Positions 20,522 through 55,633 of a DNA stretch of 64,000 nucleotides are shown here, one piece after another. Numbering within the stretch: position 1 is the first letter of the stretch; each line of letters begins with the position of its first letter. The stretch lies in IMG/VR virus record IMGVR_UViG_3300024262_000018, positions 49,960 to 113,959 of that record; one strand, written 5' to 3'. This DNA is from a virus. Below the pieces are notes generated by a model. The model ran no database searches. It saw nothing but the letters and a program-made list of their open reading frames with translations, and was not told where the DNA came from. The translations under genes and the position numbers were made by a program.

Positions 20522-20593
20522 GCTCATATCCGCTAACTGGTAAGCGAAAAGACTCTAAATTTTTTAATCGAGGTTCGAGTCCTCGTATGGGCG
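20522..20593 (+). tRNA. amber suppressor tRNA, anticodon CTA
   Basis: GCTCATA/TATGGGC acceptor, CGCT/AGCG D-stem, AAAGA-CTCTAAA-TTTTT anticodon arm, CGAGG-TTCGAGT-CCTCG T-arm. Confidence 0.85.
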
Positions 20594-42997: not shown

Positions 42998-43026
42998 TTG
43001 CTTTTTTACGTTCTCCTGCCTATAAT
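42998..43026 (+). promoter_or_regulatory. sigma70 promoter of tRNA array 1
   Basis: TTGCTT-N17-TATAAT. Confidence 0.8.
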
Positions 43027-43055
43027 CTTGTGAACAGCGATAAAGGCTAAGTTTT

Positions 43056-43163
43056 ATGAATAACATTCAAAACAACTCAACTCAGAACAACGGGACTCTC
43101 GTCCTGTCGTCCCTTTATTGTTTATCTGGGCACTCTTTGTCCCTCGGCTATTATAGTCTATAA
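43056..43163 (+). CDS. putative attenuator leader peptide (Leu/Ser/Tyr/Cys/Gly sensor), 35 aa
   Basis: MNNIQNNSTQNNGTLVLSSLYCLSGHSLSLGYYSL*, between promoter and terminator. Confidence 0.7.
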   Translation: MNNIQNNSTQNNGTLVLSSLYCLSGHSLSLGYYSL

Positions 43164-43220
43164 GACTAGCTTGAGCCGGACACAAAACTCTCTTTTTATT
43201 CCCGGCTCGGGTCATTTTTT
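43164..43220 (+). terminator. putative attenuator terminator 1
   Basis: CTTGAGCCGG (43170-79) pairs with CCGGCTCGGG (43202-11), then T6; competing pairing with CTCGGCTA 43143-50. Confidence 0.6.
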
Positions 43221-43242
43221 GAAAAATTAATATGAGTTCTAT

Positions 43243-43326
43243 GGGTTGGTTGAGCAACTGGACGCTCTGGCGACTGTAACTCGTCCGTCCGAAAGGACAT
43301 TGCAGGTTCGAGTCCTGTCCAACCCG
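43243..43326 (+). tRNA. tRNA-Tyr(GTA)
   Basis: Cloverleaf, loop CTGTAAC, long variable arm. Confidence 0.9.
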
Positions 43327-43333
43327 GTGATAT

Positions 43334-43423
43334 ACCCTTGTAGCAGAATTGGCTTATGCGATTGACTTAAAATCAATTGAGGAGTATAAACTCCTCGTGT
43401 GGGTTCGACCCCCGCCAAGGGTA
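43334..43423 (+). tRNA. tRNA-Leu(TAA)
   Basis: ATTGA-CTTAAAA-TCAAT, long variable arm. Confidence 0.9.
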
Positions 43424-43429
43424 TTACTT

Positions 43430-43517
43430 GCTCCTGTGGCGTAATTAGCAGCCGCGCTAGGTTTAGACCCTAGTGGGAATATCAAATCCCGTGCTGGTGC
43501 AACTCCAGTCAGGAGTA
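43430..43517 (+). tRNA. tRNA-Leu(TAG)
   Basis: CTAGG-TTTAGAC-CCTAG. Confidence 0.9.
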
Positions 43518-43524
43518 CTTATCT

Positions 43525-43610
43525 GCCCCTTTGGTGTAATTGGAAGCCACGATAGTTTCAAGAACTATTGCACTTTAACGTGCGTCTCGGTTCGAGTCCG
43601 GGAAGGGGCA
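43525..43610 (+). tRNA. tRNA-Leu(CAA)
   Basis: ATAGT-TTCAAGA-ACTAT. Confidence 0.9.
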
Positions 43611-43654
43611 TTTATATATTTTTCGCGCAAAATTATTTTCAAAGTGTAAAACAG

Positions 43655-43739
43655 GGAAAGTAAAGTTCATAGGTTGAGCCACCGTCTGCTAAATGGTTGG
43701 AGTGAGAAATCGCTTGTGTTTCGATTACACTGCTTTCCG
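43655..43739 (+). tRNA. tRNA-Ser(GCT)
   Basis: ACCGT-CTGCTAA-ATGGT, long variable arm, G73. Confidence 0.8.
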
Positions 43740-43755
43740 TTAATTAGGAAATAAA

Positions 43756-44337
43756 ATGAAAAAAGAACATTTTGATTATGGTTCCTATAAGAAATATATA
43801 AACCGCCAAACTAAGCTAGCCTCTCAAACAGTTTTCAAAACTCTTAGAGATAAGAAGTTTATCGAAGAAAGAGTTAAAGATCTCCTATCTCTTTATCCTA
43901 ATTATAAAAATGTTTTATGCTTAGGATCTAGACATCCAGTAGAAGTGGAAGCGTTTTTAACTGCTGGTTGTTCTGCTATAGGTATTGATCTTTTTGAAAC
44001 GCTACCACATATTATAAAATGCGATATGGCGAAGATGTATGAAAACTCAATACTTCGAAAAAGAAAACCATTTGATATCATATATATGAGCCATTCTTTA
44101 GAACATTGTTTAAATATCGAAGGGCTATTACAAGGAATTCAATGGAGTAATGCGACAGTCTTATATATAAGAGTTCCTATAAAGAATAAACCTGAAAAAT
44201 GGGATTGCACATTATTAGAATTTATGCTTCCAGATGGTAATCCCAATACGATAGAAGAATTATTTACCGGATGGACTCTTAAGGAGTTTACTCCGCTAAG
44301 TAATGAAAAGATTTTTATTTTAGAAAAGAGGAAATAA
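43756..44337 (+). CDS. class I SAM-dependent methyltransferase
   Basis: VLCLGSR...GIDL...FDIIYMSHSLEH. Confidence 0.75.
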   Translation: MKKEHFDYGSYKKYINRQTKLASQTVFKTLRDKKFIEERVKDLLSLYPNYKNVLCLGSRHPVEVEAFLTAGCSAIGIDLFETLPHIIKCDMAKMYENSILRKRKPFDIIYMSHSLEHCLNIEGLLQGIQWSNATVLYIRVPIKNKPEKWDCTLLEFMLPDGNPNTIEELFTGWTLKEFTPLSNEKIFILEKRK

Positions 44338-44338
44338 A

Positions 44339-44650
44339 ATGTCAGCATATTTTGTAGATTTAGATGGAACATTGTTTGAGTTTGGCACAGATATCTTCTT
44401 GCCAGGGACTAAAGAGTTTTTAGAGTTTATTAAAGAAAACAATCATCAACTTATACTAACAACTAGAAGGGGCGATTGGAGTGGGGTTTTTTCAAAAGAA
44501 AGCACTTTAAAAGCCCTTAAAGATCATGGTATAGAATATCATAGTATTATTTTTGGAGTTGATAGTCCTAGAATTGTTGTGAATGACGACGGATGCTCAG
44601 CTATTAATGTTATAACTAATATTGGTATGGAGAAAAAAGATTATGAATGA
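44339..44650 (+). CDS. small HAD-family phosphatase
   Basis: FVDLDGTL, LTTRR, VNDD. Confidence 0.75.
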   Translation: MSAYFVDLDGTLFEFGTDIFLPGTKEFLEFIKENNHQLILTTRRGDWSGVFSKESTLKALKDHGIEYHSIIFGVDSPRIVVNDDGCSAINVITNIGMEKKDYE

Positions 44651-44858
44651 GATTAAAATTGAATTTAAATCAAAGAGATATGGAGATACATTAGATGTCG
44701 GATATGGATATTCCAATAGCGAGGTTTTTGAAGGAGAGTTAAAAGAAGTTATTCGCAGGCTAGTTGACATAGACAAAAAATGTTATAAATATAATAAAGT
44801 AAATGTTTCTGTTGACCTTGTGGACGGGTATATAGAATTTATTGGAATTAAAAATTAA
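44643..44858 (+). CDS. hypothetical protein
   Basis: Short ORF overlapping the previous stop. Confidence 0.5.
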   Translation: MNEIKIEFKSKRYGDTLDVGYGYSNSEVFEGELKEVIRRLVDIDKKCYKYNKVNVSVDLVDGYIEFIGIKN

Positions 44859-44866
44859 TAATAACT

Positions 44867-44952
44867 GGATGAACTGGACATCGGTGAGTCCACTTGTTTT
44901 GAAAACAAGCAGGCCCGAAAAGGTCTTGGGGGTTCGAATCCCTCTTCATCCG
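44867..44952 (+). tRNA. tRNA-Ser(TGA)
   Basis: CTTGT-TTTGAAA-ACAAG. Confidence 0.88.
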
Positions 44953-44956
44953 GTAT

Positions 44957-45043
44957 GGAAGAACTGGGTATTTAGCGAACCCACTCGTCTCGAAAACGAG
45001 CAAGCCTGAAAGGGTTTTGAAAGTGCGAATCTTTCTTCTTCCG
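44957..45043 (+). tRNA. tRNA-Ser(CGA)
   Basis: CTCGT-CTCGAAA-ACGAG. Confidence 0.88.
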
Positions 45044-45128
45044 TTTAATTAATAAAATATAAAAATATTGAGTTGTGGCGTTTAAAAAGTTATAAAGAGG
45101 TATAAAACTTTGATGTAGGAGAAAAACT

Positions 45129-46286
45129 ATGACACCGCTTTTTGATCAATTAGAACCACGATTACTGTTGGATGGCACTTTTCCCGGCGACCTCAACCTT
45201 GATGGTTATGTCAATATGGAAGATCGTACTGAGGTTCATTCTGCTGCGGACTACATCGCGTGGAAGCGTAATATCGGCAAGACCGAGACAATCTCTCTGC
45301 TGGAAACGGTTCCCGGTGAGATACTTGTACAGGGGACGAATCATGCCGATACGATTTTTATAACGAACATTGGTGGTCGTGTTCAGGTTAATGGACAAAA
45401 CGCGGCAGGGGACGGAACCGTTGTTATCCTCGGCGGGAGTGGTGACGATATCATCTCGGTAGTCGGTCGTGATGCGATTGTAGATGCGGGTTCGGGTCGG
45501 GACATCGTTTGGTGTACTGACCCAGATACGGTTACAGATGCCGAAATCGTGCATGTATGCCCGAATTGGCTTCTTGACGGCACACCACTTCCTGAGATTG
45601 CTGGAGTAGAGTCAGGACAGAGTACTGATCTTTCGCATATACCGCTGTTTCCGCATGCTCCAGTGTACACTGATGTACAGCAAGGCATGTTGAATACTGG
45701 TTGGTTATTAGCGGCCTGTTCCTCTATTACGAAACAGCATCCCACGTGGTTAAGAGACAACCTTGTCGCATTCGGCGACAGTACCTACGGTGTAGCTTTT
45801 GCAGACGAGATTGTCCGGGTTGATGCCTCGTTCTGGATTTACCAGTCTGCTGTGGTTGAGGATAAAGGTCCACTGTGGCCCGTTGTTGTTGAAAAAGCCT
45901 ATGCGAGTAGTTTGGTTGGGGGGTATGATGCTTTAGAAAATTGTAAACCAGAAGATGCTATCGAGAAATTACTCGGCTGTAATTCCAGTCTTGTTGCGGG
46001 CGATTTCTTTGATTCAGCAGTAACTGCTTTGAAAGCAAAAAAAACTGTCGTGGTTCAGTTTGCCGAACTGCCGCTGAATGGCATTATTATGCCATTTCAG
46101 ACGTACGCCGTTCTTGCGGCATGGACTGGATATGATCCTGGAGAACAGTGGGTAACGCTCTATGATCCATTTAACTGTGATTATTCACCGAACTATGACG
46201 GCAAGTCGGCTGACGGTTTATATACATTACCTGCGAGTATCTTGGACACGTGCTGGTACATGGTATTAGAGTTGAGTGGCTCTTAG
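45129..46286 (+). CDS. LEPR-xLL / dockerin-like / calpain(C2)-like protein, probably catalytically inactive
   Basis: FDQLEPRLLL, GDLNLDGYVNMED, DVQQGMLNTGWLLAA, LWPVVVEKAYA; visibly GC-richer than flanks. Confidence 0.7.
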   Translation: MTPLFDQLEPRLLLDGTFPGDLNLDGYVNMEDRTEVHSAADYIAWKRNIGKTETISLLETVPGEILVQGTNHADTIFITNIGGRVQVNGQNAAGDGTVVILGGSGDDIISVVGRDAIVDAGSGRDIVWCTDPDTVTDAEIVHVCPNWLLDGTPLPEIAGVESGQSTDLSHIPLFPHAPVYTDVQQGMLNTGWLLAACSSITKQHPTWLRDNLVAFGDSTYGVAFADEIVRVDASFWIYQSAVVEDKGPLWPVVVEKAYASSLVGGYDALENCKPEDAIEKLLGCNSSLVAGDFFDSAVTALKAKKTVVVQFAELPLNGIIMPFQTYAVLAAWTGYDPGEQWVTLYDPFNCDYSPNYDGKSADGLYTLPASILDTCWYMVLELSGS

Positions 46287-46293
46287 AAAAATT

Positions 46294-46383
46294 GGAGGGT
46301 AGCAGATATGGTATCTAACTAGTTTAGAAGACTGGGCTAGCCTAATGTAAGTTGGGTTAATTGTTCGATTCAATTACTCTCCG
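46294..46383 (+). tRNA. tRNA-Ser(AGA)
   Basis: GGAGGGT/ACTCTCC acceptor, CTAGT-TTAGAAG-ACTGG, long variable arm, G73. Confidence 0.75.
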
Positions 46384-46438
46384 TACGCAAAGTGGTTTTT
46401 TTTCGCGATAATAAAAAAAACAACAACAAGGAATAAAA

Positions 46439-46714
46439 ATGACAGAATATAAAAATTATGATGATTGGTATGACAATGGACCTGGCAGCGAAAACTTCAC
46501 AAGAAAAATTGTCCAAAGTTCGAAAGTGTATCAAGAGGAAGAATACGAAAAAAAACGCGAAGAAGTAGTAAAAATTGAACGAAGAGATAAAAGGCAAAAA
46601 GCAGAAATAAAAAGATTGCGTAAAGAAAATAAAGAATTAAAAGTCGCATTAAAAAGCATGGTAGACAAACTAAATAGTGTGAAGCGCTATGTTAGTGTAT
46701 ATGATTGGAATTAG
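46439..46714 (+). CDS. hypothetical coiled-coil protein
   Basis: AAGGA RBS, 91 aa. Confidence 0.6.
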   Translation: MTEYKNYDDWYDNGPGSENFTRKIVQSSKVYQEEEYEKKREEVVKIERRDKRQKAEIKRLRKENKELKVALKSMVDKLNSVKRYVSVYDWN

Positions 46715-46717
46715 CAT

Positions 46718-46788
46718 GACCGATTGGCCGAGAGGCGAGGCGGCGTTCTGCAAAAACGCATACGTGGATTCGAATTCCACATCGGTCT
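46718..46788 (+). tRNA. tRNA-Cys(GCA)
   Basis: GCGTT-CTGCAAA-AACGC, U73. Confidence 0.9.
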
Positions 46789-46799
46789 TTTTTAAACAA

Positions 46800-46874
46800 G
46801 CACCATTAGTGTTTAACGGATCAGCATCTTTGATTTCCAATCAAAAGGTTCCAGTTCGAATCTGGAATGGTGTA
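46800..46874 (+). tRNA. tRNA-Gly(TCC)
   Basis: TTTGA-TTTCCAA-TCAAA. Confidence 0.88.
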
Positions 46875-46881
46875 GTTGCAA

Positions 46882-46953
46882 GCGGGATTGGTGTCAACAG
46901 TAGCATAGGAAATTGCCTATTTTCAGGAATCAGTGCAAATCTGATATCCCGTA
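46882..46953 (+). tRNA. tRNA-Gly(GCC)
   Basis: GGAAA-TTGCCTA-TTTTC. Confidence 0.8.
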
Positions 46954-46986
46954 TATCAAAGAACTCATATTAAAAAGGATGAAATA

Positions 46987-47808
46987 ATGCTAAGAGTTTT
47001 GGTAACAAGTGGCGGAACAAAAGTTAAATTAGATGATGTCCGGTCAATAACAAACATGTCAAAAGGGACATTCGGTGCTAAAATCGCAACTGAGTTCCTT
47101 AAAGCAGATCCGGAAATATATTTAACGTTTTTATCTGCCGAGGGAAGCAAAAACCCTTTCGATATAAATTGTTCAAGATATTTATCTCTTTGGCAAAATA
47201 TAAAAGAAGCTAATAGAGTTCGTAAATTCTATAATTCGCGTCGAACTCGTTATAGCGAAATTTCTTATAAGACTTATAATGATTATGCGGTAGAACTTAA
47301 AGGTCTTTTGGAAGGGAAAAGGTTTGATATTGTTGTCTTGGCTGCGGCAGTTAGTGACTATATTGTAGCTAATACAGTCGAGGGTAAAGTTCGCTCGACA
47401 GAAACTTTAAATATTGAACTAAAACCAGCCGAAAAGTTAATTTCTCAAGTCAAAAGTAAGATGGCTTTTCAAGATAACATTCTTGTTGGATTTAAATTAT
47501 TAGTCGGTAGCACCCATGAACAACTTATTCAAGCCGCTCAAAAAAGCATCTATGATAATGGATGCGATTTGGTTATCGCTAACGATTTAAGGGATATTCG
47601 TAACAGCAATCACAAACTAAGCATTTTAGAGCATCGTTCTGAACTTTATAATGGAGTGTGGAGTGATTCTATAGATCAATATAGCCATATTGACGCATTT
47701 GGAAAACCCCATGAAAATAATTATTTAGCATCTGTTGTAGCTAAAAGAGCGATTCATAAATGGAATAAAACTTTTGGACCGAAAGCGAGGCGAAAATATG
47801 GAGAATAA
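46987..47808 (+). CDS. coaB: phosphopantothenate-cysteine ligase (CoaB)
   Basis: VLVTSGGT...DDVRSITNMSKGTFG...LAAAVSDY...VGFKL...IAN. Confidence 0.88.
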   Translation: MLRVLVTSGGTKVKLDDVRSITNMSKGTFGAKIATEFLKADPEIYLTFLSAEGSKNPFDINCSRYLSLWQNIKEANRVRKFYNSRRTRYSEISYKTYNDYAVELKGLLEGKRFDIVVLAAAVSDYIVANTVEGKVRSTETLNIELKPAEKLISQVKSKMAFQDNILVGFKLLVGSTHEQLIQAAQKSIYDNGCDLVIANDLRDIRNSNHKLSILEHRSELYNGVWSDSIDQYSHIDAFGKPHENNYLASVVAKRAIHKWNKTFGPKARRKYGE

Positions 47809-48967
47809 AAAGAAAGTTCTTTGGGGTTTAACAGGATCAGTTGCAAGTGTTTTAACTTCTAAAATAACAAATGAAGCTCCTTGCAGATATGATGTTAAAT
47901 TCGTGGCTACTAAATGTGCCAGATCATTTTTCCATCTATCTCATGTAGACCCTCATAGTAAATTATATTTAGAAAAAGATGAATGGGAATGGACAGAAGA
48001 TAAAAATCAAACAACACAGATGAAAGAACAGGTAACAAAAAGATATTATACCTCAATACGAACAATTTGGCAAAAAGAGGATCCAGTTCTGCATATCGAG
48101 TTAAGAGACTGGGCAGATGTTTTGGTAATTGCTCCCTTAACTGCAAATACTTTAGCAAAAATGGCTAATGGCATCTGTGACAATCTATTAACTTCCATCG
48201 TAAGAGCGTGGCCTAGAGAAAAACCAATGGTAATTGCTCCTGCCATGAATACTGTTATGTGGGAAAGTCCATTTACAAAAGAACACATTAATAAACTTTC
48301 TAATATATATAATCTTAAAGTGGCTTGGCCAGTAGAAAAAGAATTAGCCTGTGGTGATCATGGCCTTGGGGCGATGGCTAATTTAGATACTATTTATGAG
48401 AAAATAGATAATGCCTTCCAATGGATTTCGCCAGTATCAGAATGTAATGGAATTCCTGTAGGTAAACATCCTGGGGCATTTGGCGTACAACGAAAGTATT
48501 CTAAACACTGCGGAGTTGATTTATATGTTAAGGATAATGTTACGGTTCACGCTATGGAACCAGGAAAGATTGTAGCAATTGAACCATTTACTGGTGCTCA
48601 AGATAATTCTCCTTGGTGGAACAATACAGAGTGCGTTTTAATACGTGGCCACTCTGGAAGAACTATTTGCTATGGAGAAATTACTACATCTAATCTCAAT
48701 CCGCCCTTGCGAGTAGGCCAATTTGTAACAAGAGGTCAATATATAGGGAATGTAATACCCGTTTTAAAAGAAGGCAAAGAACGTCCAGATATTCCTGGAC
48801 ATTCAAGATGCATGCTCCATATTGAACTTTATAAAAATAAAACAAATGTTCCTTCAGATGGTTGGGATAAAACAAAAGATATCGTTGGTTTAACTGATCC
48901 TACGCCATTCTTGCTGGACTTTTCCAATGGAAATTTTAAAAAATTAGAGATGACGGAAAATAAATAA
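47798..48967 (+). CDS. coaC: phosphopantothenoylcysteine decarboxylase (CoaC) fused to an M23 peptidase domain
   Basis: GLTGSVA, HIELRDWAD.LVIAPLTANTLAKMANGICDNLL, PAMNTVMW, LACGD.G.GAM; then HCGVD...HIE. Confidence 0.85.
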   Translation: MENKKKVLWGLTGSVASVLTSKITNEAPCRYDVKFVATKCARSFFHLSHVDPHSKLYLEKDEWEWTEDKNQTTQMKEQVTKRYYTSIRTIWQKEDPVLHIELRDWADVLVIAPLTANTLAKMANGICDNLLTSIVRAWPREKPMVIAPAMNTVMWESPFTKEHINKLSNIYNLKVAWPVEKELACGDHGLGAMANLDTIYEKIDNAFQWISPVSECNGIPVGKHPGAFGVQRKYSKHCGVDLYVKDNVTVHAMEPGKIVAIEPFTGAQDNSPWWNNTECVLIRGHSGRTICYGEITTSNLNPPLRVGQFVTRGQYIGNVIPVLKEGKERPDIPGHSRCMLHIELYKNKTNVPSDGWDKTKDIVGLTDPTPFLLDFSNGNFKKLEMTENK

Positions 48968-48981
48968 AATTAATTTTTCAC

Positions 48982-49010
48982 TTGCATTTCGCCCGCAAAA
49001 CGTCTATAAT
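48982..49010 (+). promoter_or_regulatory. sigma70 promoter of tRNA array 2
   Basis: TTGCAT-N17-TATAAT. Confidence 0.8.
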
Positions 49011-49047
49011 ACTGTGGTGCCGAAAATTCGGACCAAATAGGTGATTT

Positions 49048-49122
49048 ATGAAACGAATGTTTAAACATATTAATGTAGAGAATACATGGGTCTTTAAGAC
49101 CCGTTTAAGCGTTCGTGCGTAA
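49048..49122 (+). CDS. putative attenuator leader peptide (11-amino-acid sensor), 24 aa
   Basis: AGGTGA RBS; MKRMFKHINVENTWVFKTRLSVRA*. Confidence 0.75.
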   Translation: MKRMFKHINVENTWVFKTRLSVRA

Positions 49123-49142
49123 AGCCTTTCCTTCTTAAAAAA

Positions 49143-49175
49143 GCTCATCGCACAAAAATGCGATGGGCTTTTTTT
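49143..49175 (+). terminator. putative attenuator terminator 2
   Basis: GCTCATCGCA-CAAAAA-TGCGATGGGC-T7; competing GTGCG (49115-19) pairs with CGCAC (49149-53). Confidence 0.85.
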
Positions 49176-49199
49176 ATTGATAATAAGAAAGAATATAAA

Positions 49200-49358
49200 A
49201 TGAGTAAAAATAAAATAAATAATTTAATTAAAGAAATAGAAGGTACATTGAATAGTTGCTCTATTGTTGATATCGAATATCATTTTATCGAAGTAAAAGA
49301 TGAAATGCTTGAAAAGCTTCGAGAATTAAGAGCAGAATTAGGAATTTGGGATAAGTAA
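49200..49358 (+). CDS. small hypothetical protein
   Basis: ATG 49200, downstream of the terminator. Confidence 0.45.
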   Translation: MSKNKINNLIKEIEGTLNSCSIVDIEYHFIEVKDEMLEKLRELRAELGIWDK

Positions 49359-49365
49359 ATAATAT

Positions 49366-49440
49366 GGTGTCGTGAGTGTGACGGTTTAGCATTTTTGATT
49401 GTGAGTCAGAAGGAACCAGTTCGACTCTGGTACGATACCC
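49366..49440 (+). tRNA. tRNA-His(GTG)
   Basis: 8-bp acceptor including G-1, loop TTGTGAG. Confidence 0.88.
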
Positions 49441-49537
49441 GTTAAAAGAAAATGATATATTTTCTAGCATACAATTGATATATAAATAGAGCGAAGAAAA
49501 CGTTTTAAGGGTGGAAGGTGTTGATCCGCCCTTATAC

Positions 49538-49608
49538 ACGCTCTTGGTGTAACAGCAGCACAGGAATCTCCAAAATTTCAAGCGAAAGTGCAAATCTTTC
49601 AGGGCGTG
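49538..49608 (+). tRNA. tRNA-Trp(CCA)
   Basis: GGAAT-CTCCAAA-ATTTC. Confidence 0.85.
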
Positions 49609-49615
49609 TTAATAC

Positions 49616-49688
49616 GGGTACTGAGCAAGTCTAGTGATTGCGCAAGTCTGAAGAACTTGAGAAATTGGAGCATAACCAATAGTACCCA
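49616..49688 (+). tRNA. tRNA-Phe(GAA)
   Basis: CAAGT-CTGAAGA-ACTTG; atypical T-loop AGCATAA. Confidence 0.8.
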
Positions 49689-49705
49689 TTTAAAATTGAT
49701 TTAAC

Positions 49706-49819
49706 GTGGCGGTTGCATAATGGCAATGCAGCAGGAGACTTGAAAATGGTCTGTGGACATTATTTATACTGCGAGGGGTTAGACACCATCAAATATAGGT
49801 TCGATTCCTGTCCGTCATA
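49706..49819 (+). ncRNA. tRNA-like RNA with expanded central region
   Basis: GTGGCGG/CCGTCAT acceptor, GCAT/ATGC D-arm, ATAGG-TTCGATT-CCTGT T-arm, about 60-nt insert with no clean anticodon arm. Confidence 0.55.
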
Positions 49820-49820
49820 T

Positions 49821-50342
49821 TTATAGAGGTAGAACAGAGTATGCGAAAGGAGACATCCTTCTTTGAGTCCCTGTAATCACTTCTATCTGTTTAGGACTGA
49901 TTACTCGAACAACAGTAGCAGGATTTTCAGATTCAGGGTATTTGATTAAAGACACTTTATCTCCTGGCTTTAAATTAGATAAATCATGTATCTGTAAAGT
50001 AGAAGTTTCTATAATTCTTGGTTTTCCTACAGTATCTCCAATGGTTATTAAAGAGAAACGATTGTTTTGTTGATATGGTCCCATATATGCACCAACAAAA
50101 GTTTGATTTGTTTTGGGATCTATAAAAATAACACCATCTCCAGCCTTAAAACTTTGTTGAGGTACATTTTGTTGAGGTACATTTTGTTGAGGTACATTTT
50201 GTTGAGGTGTGCTATTTTTTTGTTGTAGAATTTCTTGAACGTTAACCATACGTTGAGGAGCATCCTGTTGAGGCGCATTTTTTCTTTGTTGTAAAACTTC
50301 TTGAATATTAACCATGCGTTGAGAAAATTTATACCAGTTCAT
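49821..50342 (-). CDS. Gln-rich repeat protein (NWY N-terminus) antisense within the tRNA array
   Basis: MNWYKFSQ, duplicated QRMVNxQExLQQ, 15-nt PQQNV tandem repeats. Confidence 0.7.
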   Translation of the reverse strand: MNWYKFSQRMVNIQEVLQQRKNAPQQDAPQRMVNVQEILQQKNSTPQQNVPQQNVPQQNVPQQSFKAGDGVIFIDPKTNQTFVGAYMGPYQQNNRFSLITIGDTVGKPRIIETSTLQIHDLSNLKPGDKVSLIKYPESENPATVVRVISPKQIEVITGTQRRMSPFAYSVLPL

Positions 50343-50399
50343 AAAATATAATACAAAAAATAAAAGATTAAACCTTTTTAAATAAAAGCAAAAGTATTT

Positions 50400-50437
50400 G
50401 GGTCAGAAGCTCAATGGACGAGCGTTGAATTTCATAA
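50400..50437 (+). pseudogene. 5' half tRNA remnant upstream of an HNH gene
   Basis: GGGTCAG-AA-GCTCAATGGACGAGC-GTTGAATTTCATAA, no T-arm follows. Confidence 0.55.
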
Positions 50438-50454
50438 AGGTTTATAAGGTTTTA

Positions 50455-50482
50455 TAAAGTTTTATCGCAGCCCTGCCGATAA
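50455..50482 (+). promoter_or_regulatory. sigma28 (FliA)-type promoter
   Basis: TAAAGTTT-N12-GCCGATAA. Confidence 0.65.
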
Positions 50483-50518
50483 ATTAACAAGTCTTGTTAA
50501 TTACTGAAAGGGCTTAAA

Positions 50519-51271
50519 ATGAGCAAAGCCTCTGAAGCTGTAAAACTTTGGCGAAAAAGAACCAAAGAAAGAATAGTAGAATCTATGGGCGGTAAATGCG
50601 TCTGTTGCGGATATGATTATTGCAATGATGCTTTAGATTTACATCATTTAGACCCAACAGAAAAAGAATTTTGTTTTGGATCTATAAAAGCTAATTGCAA
50701 AAGCTGGGCAAAAATTGTTGTTGAACTAAGAAAATGTATTTTATTATGTAGCAGATGTCATAGAGAAATACATTCAAATATGCGACAGATTCCTAAAAAT
50801 CCTAAACGATTTGATGAAAATTATATTAATTACACTAATAACAATAGAAAACATAAAAAAAGTTATTGTCCTATATGTGGAAAAGAAAAAGAAGAATTTA
50901 ATAAAACATGTTCTCATTCCTGTGCCGCCAAATTAAATAAAATGACCGACTCTGATTGGGAAAAAATTGACATATATGATCTTAGAGTTAATAAAAATTT
51001 TAATTGGTGTCAAATAGCAGATATGGTTGGGATATCAAGCTCAGCAGCACAAAAGCGTTTTAAAAAAATATATGGAAAATGGGTATATGGAAAAAGAGTA
51101 TATATCCCTCGCCTTAAACAACGAAAAGTAGAAAGACCTACAGAAGAACAAATTCTAGAAGATTTAAAAAAAATGTCTTGTTGTGCTGTTGGTCGAAAAT
51201 ATAATGTTTCTGATAACTGTATAAGAAAATGGTTAAAGTATTATAAAAAAGAAAAGAACACTAAAAAATAA
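50519..51271 (+). CDS. HNH homing endonuclease with C-terminal HTH
   Basis: GGKCVCCGY...LDLHHLDP...KCILLCSRCHREIH; VGRKYNVSDNCIRKW. Confidence 0.85.
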   Translation: MSKASEAVKLWRKRTKERIVESMGGKCVCCGYDYCNDALDLHHLDPTEKEFCFGSIKANCKSWAKIVVELRKCILLCSRCHREIHSNMRQIPKNPKRFDENYINYTNNNRKHKKSYCPICGKEKEEFNKTCSHSCAAKLNKMTDSDWEKIDIYDLRVNKNFNWCQIADMVGISSSAAQKRFKKIYGKWVYGKRVYIPRLKQRKVERPTEEQILEDLKKMSCCAVGRKYNVSDNCIRKWLKYYKKEKNTKK

Positions 51272-51278
51272 ATTACAT

Positions 51279-51353
51279 TCCCCTGTAGCTCAATTGGTAG
51301 CATGCGTTCGGCTGTTAACCGAAAGGTTGCTGGTTCGACTCCAGCCGGGGGAG
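51279..51353 (+). tRNA. tRNA-Asn(GTT)
   Basis: TTCGG-CTGTTAA-CCGAA. Confidence 0.92.
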
Positions 51354-51360
51354 TTTACAT

Positions 51361-51453
51361 TCCGGGATATGCTAACTGGGAAGCAACTTGACCGTTAATC
51401 AAGTGTAATCGAGTAGAGAATACCGTATCCAGGTTCGAGTCCTGGTCCCGGAG
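51361..51453 (+). tRNA. tRNA-Asn(GTT), C33 and long variable region
   Basis: CTTGA-CCGTTAA-TCAAG plus 25-nt variable region. Confidence 0.8.
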
Positions 51454-51459
51454 TTTCAT

Positions 51460-51533
51460 CTTCCTATAGCTCAACGCGAGAGCATGCTCCATCGGGGAGC
51501 AATACGCAGGTCCAACTCCTGCAAGGAAGACCA
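51460..51533 (+). tRNA. atypical tRNA, possibly Arg(TCG), with encoded CCA
   Basis: TGCTC-CATCGGG-GAGCA arm (A33), T-loop TCCAACT, ends ACCA. Confidence 0.55.
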
Positions 51534-51536
51534 TTT

Positions 51537-51609
51537 GGGTCTATAACATAGTGGAATAATGTATCTGGCTCTTACCCAGAAAACCAAGGTTCGATTCCTT
51601 GTGGACCTA
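51537..51609 (+). tRNA. tRNA-Lys(CTT)
   Basis: TCTGG-CTCTTAC-CCAGA. Confidence 0.88.
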
Positions 51610-51623
51610 TTGTATAATATTAC

Positions 51624-51695
51624 GGGCTTTAAACTTAGATAGCGAAGTAACACTCTTTTAAAGTGTAAAGGACAGTGCAAGTCTGTCAAGGCCCA
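51624..51695 (+). tRNA. tRNA-Lys(TTT)
   Basis: ACACT-CTTTTAA-AGTGT. Confidence 0.82.
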
Positions 51696-51697
51696 TT

Positions 51698-51913
51698 ATG
51701 AATAATTGTAAATATTTTCCTTGTCACGAAAAAATGGATGATTGTAGATTTTGCTACTGTCCGCTTTATCCCTGTTTAAAAATTTATAGGGGCGGAAAAA
51801 TGATTATAAATCAAAGTGATAAAGAAATTTGGGATTGTAGCGGTTGCAACAAACTTCATAATAAAAAAGTCGCAGAAAGATTAGATAGATTTATTAATAG
51901 AAAAATAAAATGA
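51698..51913 (+). CDS. cysteine-rich small domain protein
   Basis: CKYFPCH...CRFCYCPLYPC...WDCSGC..LH. Confidence 0.8.
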   Translation: MNNCKYFPCHEKMDDCRFCYCPLYPCLKIYRGGKMIINQSDKEIWDCSGCNKLHNKKVAERLDRFINRKIK

Positions 51914-52173
51914 AAAAATGTAAAACAATGACACAATGCAAATTAGAACTCAATGGCCTTATAGATGTGGCCTGGATTCCTACTAAATTCGCCAAAAAAG
52001 ATAATTACTTAGAAATTCAAGGAGTCAATGGTTGGAAAGTATTAGAAGTCTGGACAACTGAAGATACGGATGAAGTCAGAGATCAAGAGCAAGATTACAA
52101 AAAGACTCGTATAACATCCGATATGCCTCATGGAACCTTATCAGATACAGTTAAGAAGGCAATGGAAAAATGA
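51910..52173 (+). CDS. hypothetical protein
   Basis: ORF coupled to both neighbours. Confidence 0.6.
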   Translation: MKKCKTMTQCKLELNGLIDVAWIPTKFAKKDNYLEIQGVNGWKVLEVWTTEDTDEVRDQEQDYKKTRITSDMPHGTLSDTVKKAMEK

Positions 52174-52646
52174 TTAAAGTAATAACAGACGATCTATTAA
52201 CAACTGATATCCAATACATTGCCCATCAATGTAATTGTGTCAGTAAAAAATCTGCTCATCTTTCTAGAGATATATTTGAAGAATTTTCTTATGCAGATGT
52301 TTATACTGGGAGAACTGTTCCCGATACTTTGGGGACGGTAAAAGTTCGCGGCAATGGGAAAGAGGAACGATATGTAATAAATATGTTTGGGCAATATTAT
52401 CCAGGAACAGTAAGATATCCCAAAAGCCCTAAAGATAATTATCAAGCGAGAGAAAGAGCCTTTAAGTCTTGCCTAGAAGACATCGAGAAGATCCCAGGAT
52501 CGACTGAGATCGCTTTTCCTTATAAAATAGGTTGTGGAGCCGCTGGAGGAGATTGGGTAATTTACAAAAAAATGTTAGAAGATTTCGCAGAAAGAGTTTA
52601 TCCTTTTATCGATGTATATATTATTAAATTAAAAACGTCCTTATAG
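52170..52646 (+). CDS. macrodomain protein (OARD1/DarG-like)
   Basis: IAHQCNC...INMFGQ...IAFPYKIGCGAAGGDW. Confidence 0.85.
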   Translation: MIKVITDDLLTTDIQYIAHQCNCVSKKSAHLSRDIFEEFSYADVYTGRTVPDTLGTVKVRGNGKEERYVINMFGQYYPGTVRYPKSPKDNYQARERAFKSCLEDIEKIPGSTEIAFPYKIGCGAAGGDWVIYKKMLEDFAERVYPFIDVYIIKLKTSL

Positions 52647-52710
52647 TGAAAATGGATCATCACGACTTTTTACGGAAAAGTAATTCCGGGTTCGAGTCCT
52701 GGTAGGGATA
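52637..52710 (+). tRNA. tRNA-Arg(ACG)
   Basis: ACTTT-TTACGGA-AAAGT. Confidence 0.88.
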
Positions 52711-52712
52711 TT

Positions 52713-53426
52713 ATGAAAGTAGAATTAAACATAACATTGGCTTGCAATCTCTCTTGTCACGGTTGTGATAGGATGTGTAATATCTATAAAAATCGCACAG
52801 AACACATGTCTTTAGAACAAATTGACAAATTTATAAAGCACTCAAAAGGAAGGACAATTGAGAGAATAAAAATACTTGGAGGAGAACCATTATTACATCC
52901 TCAATTTGTTGAGATATATAATAAATTAATGTTTGCTTTTATAGGAAACAGACGAACTAGATTAATAAAAGTAGAAAGTAATCATTTACTCCCTATCCCG
53001 GATATAAAACAAACCTTTTCAATGCTGGTTGCGGGCGTTGACCCTATAGAAAAAAAACATTTACCTTATTGGTGGCATCCTAAAGATTTGGGATATGATA
53101 TCCCCGCACAGTATAAGTGTCGTCATCTAAATAGATGTGGAACATCATTAGATAAATACGGATACTTACCATGTTCCGCCGCAATTATGCTTGTTAGACT
53201 ATTCGGTTTGACAGATTTATATAGAGATTATTTACCTTATAAACCTTGGGGACTAGAGAAATTGTGCCAACATTGCATATTTGGTATGTCGAAGAGTTGG
53301 AGAGCGAAACATTCTAAATATATAAAAGAATTTCCTGAAGAATACAAAATCCCAACGAAAAGATTTAAAGAGGCGATGGAAAAGTTTGATCATAACGAGT
53401 TTTACAAGACGCAAAAAGAATTTTAA
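52713..53426 (+). CDS. radical SAM protein
   Basis: CNLSCHGC, LGGEPLLHP, C-terminal Cys cluster. Confidence 0.85.
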   Translation: MKVELNITLACNLSCHGCDRMCNIYKNRTEHMSLEQIDKFIKHSKGRTIERIKILGGEPLLHPQFVEIYNKLMFAFIGNRRTRLIKVESNHLLPIPDIKQTFSMLVAGVDPIEKKHLPYWWHPKDLGYDIPAQYKCRHLNRCGTSLDKYGYLPCSAAIMLVRLFGLTDLYRDYLPYKPWGLEKLCQHCIFGMSKSWRAKHSKYIKEFPEEYKIPTKRFKEAMEKFDHNEFYKTQKEF

Positions 53427-53428
53427 AC

Positions 53429-53501
53429 GGGCGATTAGGAAAGTAGCTAATCCGATTGTTTTACACGCAATAAATCACTGGTGCAAATCCAGTATCGCCT
53501 A
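53429..53501 (+). tRNA. tRNA-Val(TAC)
   Basis: ATTGT-TTTACAC-GCAAT. Confidence 0.85.
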
Positions 53502-53522
53502 TTATATCAAGGGAGATGGAAT

Positions 53523-54029
53523 ATGAAAATAGAGATGTTCAAAGGTAAATTGTTAGAAGACGATATTCTTATTATGTCAAAAGATGAATTATTGGAAAAA
53601 CAAAGTTTTGAAGAAAGTCCTATTGGTCGAATGTGCTGGATGCAGGTTTTTACTAATTTATCTGGATATCCTTGTATTCAGCCAGTAAAGGCAGGAAGCA
53701 AATTCGCCCGATGGAGTCCTAATCTTGAAGTAATTGAAGAATCTAAAAACGAAGAAAGCATTCCTATAATAATCTTTGAAGATGATGGATATATTGTTAA
53801 TTTAAATGCATTAGATGACTCTCCATTTTTAACTGACGAAAAAGGAACATGTTGTGGATCGGGCTCAAGTTTGGCTTTCAGTGATGATGGTGAAACTTGG
53901 TATATCTTTGGAGACGATCCTTTTTCAATCGATATAGATGAAGATGAACAATACTATAGCAAAAGAGTTATGGACACTGTTAAAAAATTAAAGGAGCAAG
54001 GAGTTCTGTTTGTTTTAAATTATCTATAA
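53523..54029 (+). CDS. hypothetical acidic protein
   Basis: ATG 53523 after GGAG. Confidence 0.6.
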   Translation: MKIEMFKGKLLEDDILIMSKDELLEKQSFEESPIGRMCWMQVFTNLSGYPCIQPVKAGSKFARWSPNLEVIEESKNEESIPIIIFEDDGYIVNLNALDDSPFLTDEKGTCCGSGSSLAFSDDGETWYIFGDDPFSIDIDEDEQYYSKRVMDTVKKLKEQGVLFVLNYL

Positions 54030-54037
54030 TTTTACAA

Positions 54038-54112
54038 ACCCCTATCGTCTAATCGGTTTAGGTACACTGGATTCTCAGTCCAGAAATCGGAGTTCGAATC
54101 TCCGTAGGGGTA
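54038..54112 (+). tRNA. tRNA-Glu(CTC)
   Basis: CTGGA-TTCTCAG-TCCAG. Confidence 0.9.
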
Positions 54113-54118
54113 TTAAAC

Positions 54119-54193
54119 GCCGTCATCGTCTAAATGGTTTAGGATACTTGATTTTCAGTCAAGCAGATCAGGGTTCGAATCCCTGTGGCGGTA
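54119..54193 (+). tRNA. tRNA-Glu(TTC)
   Basis: CTTGA-TTTTCAG-TCAAG. Confidence 0.9.
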
Positions 54194-54212
54194 TTAAATA
54201 AGGAGATCATAT

Positions 54213-54506
54213 ATGGATGTTGAAAAATATATAAAACATATTAAAGATTGTCATGAAAGAACAGTTATTGCTGGCAAAATGGTTTGTCATGATGGGGATT
54301 GTGGAATATATGGATGTAATGTTCCTGTTTGCACTTGTGGATTATTACACAAAATAAAACCTTTTGCCGCCTCATATCCAGAAGAAGCAATGAAGTTATA
54401 TCCTAAATATGAGGAAGATTTAGAAAAACAAAGTGTTTGGGAAACTTTAGATCAATACATTGACGAGAAAGATATAAAAAAGTTGTTAGAATTTTTAACA
54501 ATTTGA
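54213..54506 (+). CDS. hypothetical Cys/His-rich protein
   Basis: AAGGAG RBS; CHDGDC...CTCGLLH. Confidence 0.65.
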   Translation: MDVEKYIKHIKDCHERTVIAGKMVCHDGDCGIYGCNVPVCTCGLLHKIKPFAASYPEEAMKLYPKYEEDLEKQSVWETLDQYIDEKDIKKLLEFLTI

Positions 54507-54511
54507 ATTAC

Positions 54512-54584
54512 GCGATTATAGCTTAATTAGAAAAGCATCCGACCGATAATCGGAAGAGTTCTGGTGCGAGTCCAGATAATCGCA
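54512..54584 (+). tRNA. tRNA-Ile(GAT)
   Basis: TCCGA-CCGATAA-TCGGA (C33). Confidence 0.88.
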
Positions 54585-54591
54585 TTTAATT

Positions 54592-54663
54592 GTTTCTATG
54601 GTGAAATGGATATCATATTTTTCTCCTAAAAAAAAGTTTCCGGTTCGAATCCGGATAGAGATA
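54592..54663 (+). tRNA. tRNA-Arg(CCT)
   Basis: TTTTT-CTCCTAA-AAAAA. Confidence 0.85.
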
Positions 54664-54670
54664 TTAAGTC

Positions 54671-54743
54671 GCTCTTATGGTGAAATGGACTATCATATTT
54701 TTCTTCTAAAAAAAAGTTTCCGGTTCGAATCCGGATAAGAGTA
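54671..54743 (+). tRNA. tRNA-Arg(TCT)
   Basis: TTTTT-CTTCTAA-AAAAA. Confidence 0.85.
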
Positions 54744-54750
54744 GTTTTTT

Positions 54751-54822
54751 GCTCCCTAAACATTGCCGGTGATGCCTTAGCCCGTAACTAAGTACAAGTC
54801 AGTTCGAGTCTGACAGGGAGCT
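54751..54822 (+). tRNA. tRNA-Thr(CGT)
   Basis: CTTAG-CCCGTAA-CTAAG (C33). Confidence 0.82.
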
Positions 54823-54827
54823 TCTAT

Positions 54828-54899
54828 GCCGATTAATCATAGAAAGCGATGAACCTGTCCGGTACACAGGATAGAGAGGTGCATGTCCTCTAGTCGGCT
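54828..54899 (+). tRNA. tRNA-Thr(GGT)
   Basis: CCTGT-CCGGTAC-ACAGG (C33). Confidence 0.82.
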
Positions 54900-54902
54900 T
54901 TA

Positions 54903-55238
54903 TGAACTACTCCAGGCTAAAGCCCCGGAGTTTCCTCACTCAACGAGTGAACTTACTCTAACACTATGAATACTTTTAAGTTTATCCATAATAGAAAGAA
55001 TAGAGGTTCTACTCTCCTGAGGCTTTAATTCCCTATATTCCGTAGGTACTCGTTTATCTTTTAATCCTTCTCTCAATATGTTTCTTGAAGCATTTACGTC
55101 TCTATCTTCTTCACAACCACAACTTGGACAAACATAAGTTCTTTTATCTTGAGACATTTTTTGTTTATTTCCACAGCTAAAGCATAACTGAGAAGAAGGA
55201 AAAAATCTATTTATTTCTATAGTAAGATGTGCCGCCAC
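54903..55238 (-). mobile_element. tnpB: IS200/IS605-family remnant: TnpB C-terminus plus right-end hairpin
   Basis: FFPSSQLCFSCG...YVCPSCG...DRDVNASRNI; end GAAACTCCGGGGCTTTAGCCTGGAGTAGTTCA on the minus strand. Confidence 0.85.
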
Positions 55239-55402
55239 AAATGCGGCTTGTGCTCATACTGAATCAAGAAATAGAGATTGGTGGATGGATAAATATTATA
55301 ATTTGAAAAAACAATTTGATAAAATTACACAAGAGTCTTTGGTCGTTAAAGCTTCTTGATTCAGAAAAGTACTAAATTGTTTTTGTTTGCGAAAATAAAA
55401 TT

Positions 55403-55474
55403 GCCCGCGTAGCTTAACTAGTAGAGTCCCTGTTTTGTACTCAGGAGGTACGGGTGCGAGTCCTGTCGCGGGCT
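55403..55474 (+). tRNA. tRNA-Thr(TGT)
   Basis: GCCCGCG/CGCGGGC acceptor, loop TTTGTAC. Confidence 0.85.
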
Positions 55475-55480
55475 GTATTT

Positions 55481-55553
55481 AGCGGTATCGTATAATGGTT
55501 TATTACATCTTTTTCATAAGGAGAAAATCAAGGTTCAATTCCTTGTACCGCTA
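55481..55553 (+). tRNA. tRNA-Met(CAT)
   Basis: TCTTT-TTCATAA-GGAGA. Confidence 0.85.
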
Positions 55554-55633
55554 TTCTTAAAGGAAAAACTTTAAAAAAATATAAAGAGTGAGTGCTAAAA
55601 TACTTACTCTTTTTCTATTTAGAGGAGATAACT

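Follow-up and report, generated by a model that had tools for sequence, protein, structure and literature searches.

The DNA analysed here, referred to below as the window, is a stretch of 64,000 nucleotides forming the final 64 kb of IMG/VR virus record IMGVR_UViG_3300024262_000018. The record is a contig of 113,959 bp with 35% G+C and without a terminal repeat, and it is a fragment of a large phage. Sequencing runs point to a subsurface metagenome as its likely origin, with small shares also in soil metagenomes. This phage encodes tRNAs for all 20 amino acids, all of them on the plus strand: two blocks lie within the window (blocks 1 and 2), and genes for Pro, Ala, Asp and three Gln tRNAs lie before or at its start. 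At the head of each block stand a promoter, a short open reading frame (ORF), which we call the leader, and an intrinsic terminator, and each leader is composed largely of the amino acids carried by the tRNAs downstream of it. We describe these units and their counterparts in other huge phages, and weigh the reading that we consider likely, namely that the leaders are attenuators through which ribosome stalling would switch on the tRNA genes.

The motif TTGC.T-N17-TATAAT occurs exactly three times in the contig, always on the plus strand, and each occurrence precedes a short ORF, an intrinsic terminator and a tRNA block (Table 1). Two of these sites are the sigma70 promoters that the original prediction, made from the letters of the window, had placed at 42998 and 48982. 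Reading of the sequence bears them out; a consensus promoter scan passes over both because the agreement of their -35 hexamers is 3 of 6. The upstream part of promoter 1 can be aligned with promoter 3, and a scan of the contig found no further promoter of this type between the leaders and the tRNAs. The leader ORFs predicted along with the two promoters are likewise upheld, each being the first ATG ORF after its promoter.

The third unit lies upstream of the window. It was expected that a leader might also precede the Pro, Ala, Asp and Gln tRNAs elsewhere in the genome, and a matched leader is indeed found there, in a unit with the order promoter, non-canonical tRNA-Met(cat), leader ORF, terminator, and then Pro, Ala, Asp and three Gln genes. 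Because it is located between the promoter and the leader ORF, the tRNA-Met of this unit would escape the attenuator. The 5' arm of the third terminator is formed by the last five codons of the leader (17-21), and the stop codon falls in the hairpin loop.

Recounting of the tRNA genes confirms that the blocks carry non-overlapping sets of amino acids: P, A, D and Q in the upstream block, Y, L, S, C and G in block 1, and H, W, F, N, K, R, V, E, I, T and M in block 2. While these sets stand as first listed, the gene lists behind them needed correction: four tRNAs that ARAGORN overlooks with default settings were recovered with Rfam or a lower ARAGORN threshold, and one intron-bearing tRNA is doubtful. 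Nor are the arrays pure, as protein genes are interspersed among the tRNAs of both units. Those of unit 1 encode a methyltransferase, a HAD-like protein, a calpain-like peptidase, CoaB and a CoaC-M23 fusion, in addition to small ORFs, and the tRNA blocks also hold an HNH/HTH protein and a radical-SAM protein. As a terminator scan of the window found no strong plus-strand terminator within block 1 or block 2, unit 1 probably extends to terminator 2, which would then end this unit too. The conserved box ahead of the first tRNA of block 1 occurs once in the window; five matches to it in IMG/VR were dismissed as chance.

Table 1. Positions of the three promoter-leader-terminator units, their tRNA genes and the matched leaders of other huge phages. 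Plain numbers are window positions; positions preceded by an L number are within that locus, and rc marks a position on the reverse complement of the locus.
Feature	Position	Strand	Details
Third promoter-leader-terminator unit	L001:7286-7580 (contig 47285-47579)	+	promoter at contig 47285; 2.5 kb ahead of window
Third leader ORF	L001:7418-7483	+	21 codons; composition matched to P, A, D, Q
Promoter 1	42998-43026	+	-35 TTGCTT (42998-43003), 17-nt spacer, -10 TATAAT (43021-43026); A/T-rich stretch upstream
Leader ORF 1	43056-43163	+	35 codons and TAA; AAGG 9 nt ahead of ATG
Candidate antiterminator strand, leader 1	43143-43150 (codons 30-32)	+	pairs with 43167-43175, the outer part of the terminator 5' arm
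Terminator 1	43170-43221	+	stem 43170-43180/43202-43212, 21-nt loop, then CA and six T (43216-43221)
Conserved box	43219-43241	+	directly ahead of first tRNA; common to the block before the window
Tyr(gta), Leu(taa), Leu(tag), Leu(caa), Ser(gct)	43242-43739	+	head of block 1
Ser(gct)	43655-43739	+	recovered at lower ARAGORN threshold
Remainder of unit 1	43756-48967	+	protein genes interspersed with tRNAs
Ser(tga)	44866-44953	+	within unit 1
Ser(cga)	44956-45044	+	within unit 1
Ser	46293-46384	+	within unit 1
Cys	46718-46788	+	within unit 1
Gly	46800-46874	+	within unit 1
Promoter 2	48982-49010	+	-35 TTGCAT, 17-nt spacer, -10 TATAAT
Region 1, leader 2	49039-49066	+	Shine-Dalgarno AGGTGA, ATG, first codons
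Leader ORF 2	49048-49122	+	24 codons and TAA; AGGTGA ahead of ATG
Antiterminator strand, leader 2 (predicted)	49115-49129	+	similar to terminator 3' arm; pairs with 5' arm (5+3+3 pairs)
Terminator 2	49137-49175	+	arms 49137-49152/49159-49174, loop 49153-49158, seven T, T-run to 49175
Small ORF	49158-49358	+	66 codons, or 52 from ATG at 49200; between terminator 2 and tRNA-His; without family match
Unit 2 tRNAs	49367-55554	+	His, Trp, Phe, doubtful intron-bearing tRNA, Asn x2, Lys(ctt), Lys(ttt), Arg(acg), Val, Glu x2, Ile, Arg(cct), Arg(tct), Thr(cgt), Thr(tgt), Met
Phe(gaa)	49616-49688	+	overlooked by default ARAGORN
Lys(ttt)	51624-51695	+	overlooked by default ARAGORN
Thr(cgt)	54751-54822	+	overlooked by default ARAGORN
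Terminator closing unit 2	55583-55620	+	29 nt past last tRNA; 12-pair stem, T-rich tail
Leader, G001 (151,773 bp)	L008:2495-2569		tRNAs Phe Leu Ser Val Leu Ser Asn Cys Tyr ...; 16-residue core is exactly those seven amino acids
Leader, G005 (527,112 bp, complete)	rc L051:2575-2661		tRNAs Arg x3, Val, Gln, Val x3, Ala x2; 19/27, p 1e-8
Leader, G005	rc L053:2020-2094		tRNAs Phe x2, Tyr x2, Ser x3, Leu x5; p 3e-5
Leader, LR756501.1	rc L056:987-1067		Glu/Met/Gln/Ile block; p 1e-4
Leader, LR756501.1	rc L058:1044-1112		five Leu tRNAs; p 2e-3
Leader, LR756501.1	rc L059:1110-1205		Trp/His/Phe/Lys/Ser block; p 2e-4
Leader, LR756501.1	rc L061:1005-1133		Arg/Ala/Thr/Val/Gly/Pro block; p 8e-5

Leader composition in this genome and in other huge phages

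In the composition tests, residues were counted after the initiator Met, and the own set of a leader was taken as the amino acids of the tRNAs in the block downstream. Over the sets PADQ, YLSCG and block 2, the third leader has 11, 0 and 9 residues, leader 1 has 2, 21 and 11, and leader 2 has 1, 2 and 20 (chi-square p 5e-10). Own-set residues make up 21 of 34 in leader 1 and 20 of 23 in leader 2, with binomial tails of 2e-5 and 9e-4, respectively; the tail for the third leader is 4e-4. Among 524 ATG ORFs of 18-45 codons from both strands of the contig, the third leader and leader 2 each rank first for their own set, and leader 1 ranks second. Shuffling that keeps the mononucleotide content gives p values of 1e-4, 3e-4 and 3.5e-4 for the third leader, leader 1 and leader 2, and shuffling that keeps the dinucleotide content gives 6.5e-4, 1.3e-3 and 1.5e-3 in the same order. 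The match is also confined to the reading frame, as the other five frames fail for each leader (in the case of leader 1, with 5-15 of 34 residues). Since the leader ORFs are fixed by position and were not chosen for composition, chance and base composition are excluded as its source, and the claim that each leader is built largely from the amino acids of its own array can be maintained.

In leader 1, residues 15-35 are nearly all Leu, Ser, Tyr, Cys or Gly; this ORF uses all six Leu codons and five Ser codons, and 15 distinct codons appear where 12.3 are expected. Codons 1-19 of leader 2 specify amino acids of block 2 only, with Leu, Ser and Ala among the final five.

The CoaB and CoaC-M23 peptidase fusion genes lie between the two tRNA blocks, at window 46987-48967. 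The fusion has thousands of homologues, many of them on contigs of 200-620 kb and frequently beside tRNA arrays. Its best homologues on long contigs are about 50% identical, and its closest relatives, at 63-85% identity, are on short ENA contigs. No close relative of the phage was found in IMG/VR with a single protein, a 20-mer of tRNA-Tyr or the conserved pre-tRNA box. The phages compared here are represented by the tRNA regions of five IMG/VR records (G001-G005) and of the published 735-kb genome LR756501.1, in which all ATG ORFs of 12-45 codons ending at most 400 nt upstream of a tRNA were scored against the amino acids of the tRNAs that follow.

Of the 302 short ORFs screened in this way, the leaders of the phage itself and three from relatives are within the top eight. 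Altogether, seven additional matched leaders were identified in three other huge phages (G001, G005 and LR756501.1), all with a promoter-like element upstream and a strong terminator downstream. In one of these units, that of G005 with Arg, Val, Gln and Ala tRNAs, a strong terminator directly past the last Ala tRNA closes the unit. Leader sequences are unrelated between phages, and composition alone tracks the local array, so that the co-variation of leaders with array content that had been expected in related huge phages is seen: the seven leaders follow their own arrays. Phe, for example, is present in block leaders whose arrays hold tRNA-Phe (leader 2 and those of L008 and L053) and absent from leader 1 and the leader of L051, whose arrays are without it. 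When six leaders are permuted over six arrays, the true pairing comes second among the 720 arrangements. Six leaders contain 83 distinct synonymous codons, against 69.1 expected from the codon usage of each phage, a number reached in none of 5000 simulations; this diversity fits a device that samples many isoacceptors.

A census from the side of the terminators gives a similar picture. Where a terminator of -17 kcal/mol or lower lies within 450 nt upstream of a tRNA and a short ORF ends beside it, that ORF is a matched leader in all cases except one, in L049. Leaders 1 and 2, as well as those of L051 and L053, are preceded by normally spaced Shine-Dalgarno motifs, and the ATG of the L008 leader is at the predicted transcript start. 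Inspection by eye of L005, L007 and L011 yielded no convincing matched leader.

Several other features of the relatives' units may be recorded here. A tRNA-Met gene, which in the third unit precedes the leader, is also upstream of the leader in G001 (L008:1883), and in G005 (rc L052:3022) it directly follows a promoter; no clear leader was found in this L052 array. The small ORF between terminator 2 and tRNA-His has an unrelated counterpart at the equivalent place between terminator and tRNAs in the G005 locus L053. In G001, the palindrome ATTCGCGAAT occurs in the spacer of the leader promoter and again just ahead of the first tRNA (L008:2465-2480 and 2685-2700), and it may be a regulator binding site. 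The four LR756501.1 loci (rc L056, L058, L059 and L061) have a common box about 40-70 nt ahead of the leader ATG, consisting of an A-run, TGAC, a T-run, a short spacer and ATATATA, which is probably the promoter type of the phage or its host. In G005, the stretch between a TTGACA-17-TATGAT promoter and the leader ORF contains two hairpins (rc L051:2400-2545), the first long and G+C-rich and the second with a T-run.

Proposed attenuation by stalled ribosomes and its rivals

We propose that each tRNA block is probably a transcription unit under a multiplex leader-peptide attenuator, in which ribosome stalling leads to read-through. Under this model, a host-type sigma-70 promoter and the attenuator head each block, and the short ORF would be translated while it is being transcribed. 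Its central codons would demand the amino acids decoded by the downstream phage tRNAs, sampling many synonymous codons, and if charged tRNA were short for any matched codon, the ribosome would stall in the matched window. A segment at or after the 3' end of the ORF could then pair with the 5' arm of the terminator, and RNA polymerase would continue into the tRNA genes. With quick decoding, the ribosome would reach the end of the ORF and cover this segment, the terminator would form, and a leader RNA of about 150-190 nt would be released. The net effect would be negative feedback, with the output of tRNAs and embedded protein genes rising when decoding capacity for those codons is low and falling once it is restored. 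Leader translation, termination at the predicted sites, and the direction, magnitude and natural trigger of the response are inferred from the sequence.

The folding behaviour of the leaders was explored with a model restricted to RNA that the ribosome has not yet reached, starting 13 nt beyond the first nucleotide of the A-site codon and ending at the terminator loop, before the 3' arm exists. In nine of the ten leaders, the model pairs the 5' arm of the terminator with upstream sequence when the A site is in early or central codons, and frees it when the ribosome is at the last codons or the stop. An antiterminator is predicted for leader 2 and for the seven leaders of the relatives; for leader 1 it is weak, and for the third leader absent. 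Comparison by eye places the antiterminator segment at or just past the 3' end of the ORF, where it is similar to the 3' arm of the terminator. Over nine leaders, matched residues number 127 of 184 in the window that keeps the antiterminator and 28 of 63 after it (p 5e-4). The attenuator logic of the original prediction is supported, and the fold model locates the switch at the end of the matched codons. The terminators and competing antiterminators that it named for the two window units fare unequally: both terminators are present, and the antiterminator is recovered in the model for leader 2, but that of leader 1 is weak.

In leader 2 without a ribosome, region 1 pairs in the fold with region 2 (49103-49127), so that the terminator stays free, and the resulting pairing scheme is predicted to be the classical four-region layout. 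With a ribosome, the model keeps the antiterminator paired with the A site at codons 2-19 and loses it at codons 20-25. The switch between codons 19 and 20 is the point where the amino acids of block 2 end and Leu, Ser and Ala appear. Terminator 2 has a predicted stability of -19.8 kcal/mol and is also called on the minus strand by the scan. In leader 1, the modelled antiterminator pairing is present with the A site at codons 2-26 and gone from codon 27; terminator 1, at -17.7 kcal/mol, has a formation probability of 0.97 at equilibrium.

A number of observations weigh against this interpretation. The antiterminator of leader 1 is a short one that does not pair with the inner CCGG of the terminator arm, and the matched residues of this leader go on through the window in which the model has it off (9 of 9), up to the stop codon. 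In the third leader the fold model gives no antiterminator, and termination would also be blocked by a ribosome that has reached the stop codon; because the ribosome itself covers the terminator arm and there is no antiterminator, the sign of the response is less certain for this leader. The composition test has little power where the sets are large, as block 2 alone accounts for 11 of the 20 amino acids, and the match is imperfect at the level of codons: GGC and ACC, for example, are read by no anticodon of the block under standard wobble. The screen yielded no significant matched ORF in G002, G003 and G004, which have large arrays, so that either the design is not universal or the screen is underpowered in these three. 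Equilibrium folds of the full-length leaders always give the terminator, wherever the ribosome footprint is masked. This last result is uninformative because attenuators are kinetic devices; by the same token, the proposed switch depends on kinetic, co-transcriptional reasoning and on a simple, purpose-made model.

The main rival has the opposite sign. The pyrBI and pyrE attenuators sense nucleotide pools via pausing of RNA polymerase, with leaders whose composition is not matched to the regulated product, and in a similar arrangement a ribosome close behind the polymerase would melt or cover the terminator, so that efficient decoding gives read-through and slow decoding gives termination, with tRNAs made only when translation already works. 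The third leader resembles pyrBI and pyrE in that its terminator is in or at the end of the ORF, where a ribosome can block it: in masked folding, the hairpin is lost once the A site is at codon 14 or beyond, as the ribosome then covers the terminator arm. For leader 1, placing the ribosome on the stop codon cuts the formation probability of the terminator by half. In leader 2 and the seven leaders of the relatives, however, the stop codon is well ahead of the terminator, and the end of the ORF mimics the 3' arm, so that covering it favours termination. Matched codons concentrate where stalling retains the antiterminator and not beside the terminator, and positive feedback on tRNA supply has no obvious use. 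We therefore regard this reading as unlikely.

It is somewhat less probable still that the leaders are independent small genes, that is, stable small RNAs or micropeptide mRNAs that merely stand ahead of the blocks and have no effect in cis, with the tRNAs transcribed from other promoters. The strong structure of leader 2 RNA (minimum free energy -66 kcal/mol, z -8.9), together with its own promoter and strong terminator, is what a small-RNA gene would show. In Sinorhizobium, both leader peptides and the RNAs of terminated attenuators are reported to be capable of acting in trans (10.1101/606483, PMC7298713). Such genes would nevertheless leave unexplained the frame-specific match, the recurrence in four phages with unrelated leaders and the mimicry of the 3' arm; in addition, no Rfam family matches the leader regions, and the contig scan placed no other promoter of the TTGC.T-N17-TATAAT type between leader and tRNAs. 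It is very improbable that RNA structure or local base composition produced the match as a side effect, or that chance did so and the pattern was noticed after the fact. The matched stretches do contain more G+C or pyrimidines than the genome and overlap structured RNA, and the ORFs were originally chosen by eye, but the match survives both kinds of shuffling (p 1e-4 to 1.5e-3 per leader), fails in the other five frames, belongs to ORFs whose choice follows from position, each being the first to begin with ATG behind one of the only three promoters of this type, and returns in the unbiased screen of 302 ORFs.

If stalling does lead to read-through, any shortage of charged cognate tRNA would act alike; anticodon nucleases, a mismatch between the host tRNA pool and phage codon usage, and host tRNA decay are each one possibility. 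A tentative extension of the attenuator model, to which we give a rather low probability, is counter-defence on demand. A block would be mostly off until an anticodon nuclease, or host tRNA decay induced by the phage, removed a tRNA that the phage can replace; stalling would then turn on the nuclease-resistant tRNAs and tRNA-related enzymes of that block, and independent pairs of sensor and effector would span the 20 amino acids. The original wording, that replacement tRNAs are transcribed only when host tRNAs are cleaved or uncharged, is too strong, as terminators 1 and 3 look leaky.

Relation to known systems

Leader-peptide attenuation has stood in the textbooks for 45 years. The enterobacterial examples include trp, his, leu and pheA, as well as thr with Thr and Ile, and ilvGMEDA with Ile, Leu and Val. 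Like these amino-acid operon attenuators, the phage units have a promoter and a short ORF rich in regulatory codons ahead of the genes that would be regulated, in most cases with mutually exclusive antiterminator and terminator hairpins predicted by the fold model, and a stalled ribosome would select the antiterminator; the pairing of regions 1 and 2 in leader 2, which would give termination without a ribosome, is another predicted similarity. Unlike them, the phage would regulate tRNAs and embedded protein genes rather than biosynthesis enzymes, and it is a virus in which several proposed attenuators share out the 20 amino acids. A phage leader covers 4 to 11 amino acids, compared with 1 to 3, and has scattered single codons, many of them synonymous, in place of runs of one codon. 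To our knowledge, the leader-peptide attenuators described so far all regulate enzymes of amino-acid biosynthesis or aminoacylation. The phage device would have the structural hallmarks of leader-peptide attenuators, except that the regulated genes are tRNAs.

Closer in its target is pheST of E. coli, in which the pheM leader peptide controls phenylalanyl-tRNA synthetase in response to charged cognate tRNA. In pheST, as proposed for the phage, a leader-peptide attenuator acts on the decoding apparatus and not on a biosynthetic pathway; however, pheST senses one amino acid and yields a synthetase, while the phage would yield tRNA under a multiplex sensor. T-box riboswitches (RF00230) share with the proposed phage attenuators the sensing of tRNA state by codon-anticodon recognition and a terminator/antiterminator switch ahead of translation-related genes. 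They differ in binding uncharged tRNA directly, through one specifier codon and without a ribosome, whereas the codons in the phage are part of an ORF that has a start, a stop and a ribosome-binding site. Neither a T-box nor any other non-tRNA Rfam family reaches the gathering score in the window, none appears in the leaders at E values up to 1, and sub-threshold non-tRNA matches fall only on tRNA genes. A T-box identity is ruled out by the lack of an Rfam match in the leaders.

The nearest published regulated accessory tRNA array is the trn operon of Anabaena sp. PCC 7120, a long tRNA array that is induced under translational stress and controlled by the TrcR repressor, which acts on direct repeats over the -10 box (PMC8421152, PMC10272220). 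Like the phage blocks under our model, it is an extra, horizontally spread array kept low and induced when translation is impaired. Unlike them, it has no codon-matched ORF or per-block specificity, and the words "leader" and "attenuat" do not occur in these two papers.

A full-text literature search found no description of leader-peptide control of tRNA genes, and neither leaders nor attenuation are mentioned in the publication of LR756501.1. As far as we can find, neither leader-peptide attenuation of tRNA genes nor such a sensor of up to eleven amino acids at once has a precedent. For the question of why phages have tRNA genes, the current proposals are compensation for codon usage, decay of host tRNAs and evasion of anticodon nucleases (PMC11555353, PMC11464382). 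If the attenuator model is true, it bears on this question, as huge phages would gauge the decoding capacity of the host per codon family and tune their own tRNA supply. The design also offers a rule by which the transcription units that make up tRNA arrays can be located in huge phages whose genomes lack annotation, LR756501.1 among them. The leaders would be compact, natural and programmable sensors of codon-specific translation speed that could be reused as reporters, and with a size of about 200 nt and sigma-70-type signals the element is suited to direct cell-free work.

tRNA genes and other features of the window

Some of the tRNA genes are unusual in themselves. The intron-bearing tRNA-like gene of block 2 (window 49706-49819) scores 33 bits with Rfam and has a predicted 23-nt insert in the anticodon arm; its assignment by ARAGORN as Asn(att) is doubtful. 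The tRNA-Gln and tRNA-Asn genes at 1531-1615, 1627-1711 and 51360-51454 measure 85-95 nt, above the normal size for their isotypes, and may contain inserts or introns. An amber-suppressor tRNA with anticodon cta is present at 20522-20593, yet TAG is apparently a stop codon in the long ORFs of the window. The tRNA-Ser(gct) of block 1 has about 79% identity to sites without annotation in T4-like phages of Acinetobacter, among them vB_AbaM_Lazarus.

Within block 2, a 100-codon ORF on the minus strand (54936-55238) has two CxxC motifs and by eye resembles the C-terminal zinc-ribbon of IS200/IS605 TnpB. The window also encodes an AAA ATPase and many genes without a known family. Helicase and class I/II-type ribonucleotide reductase genes are located at 21896-26449 and 31015-34857, and each has an intein bearing a LAGLIDADG endonuclease domain.

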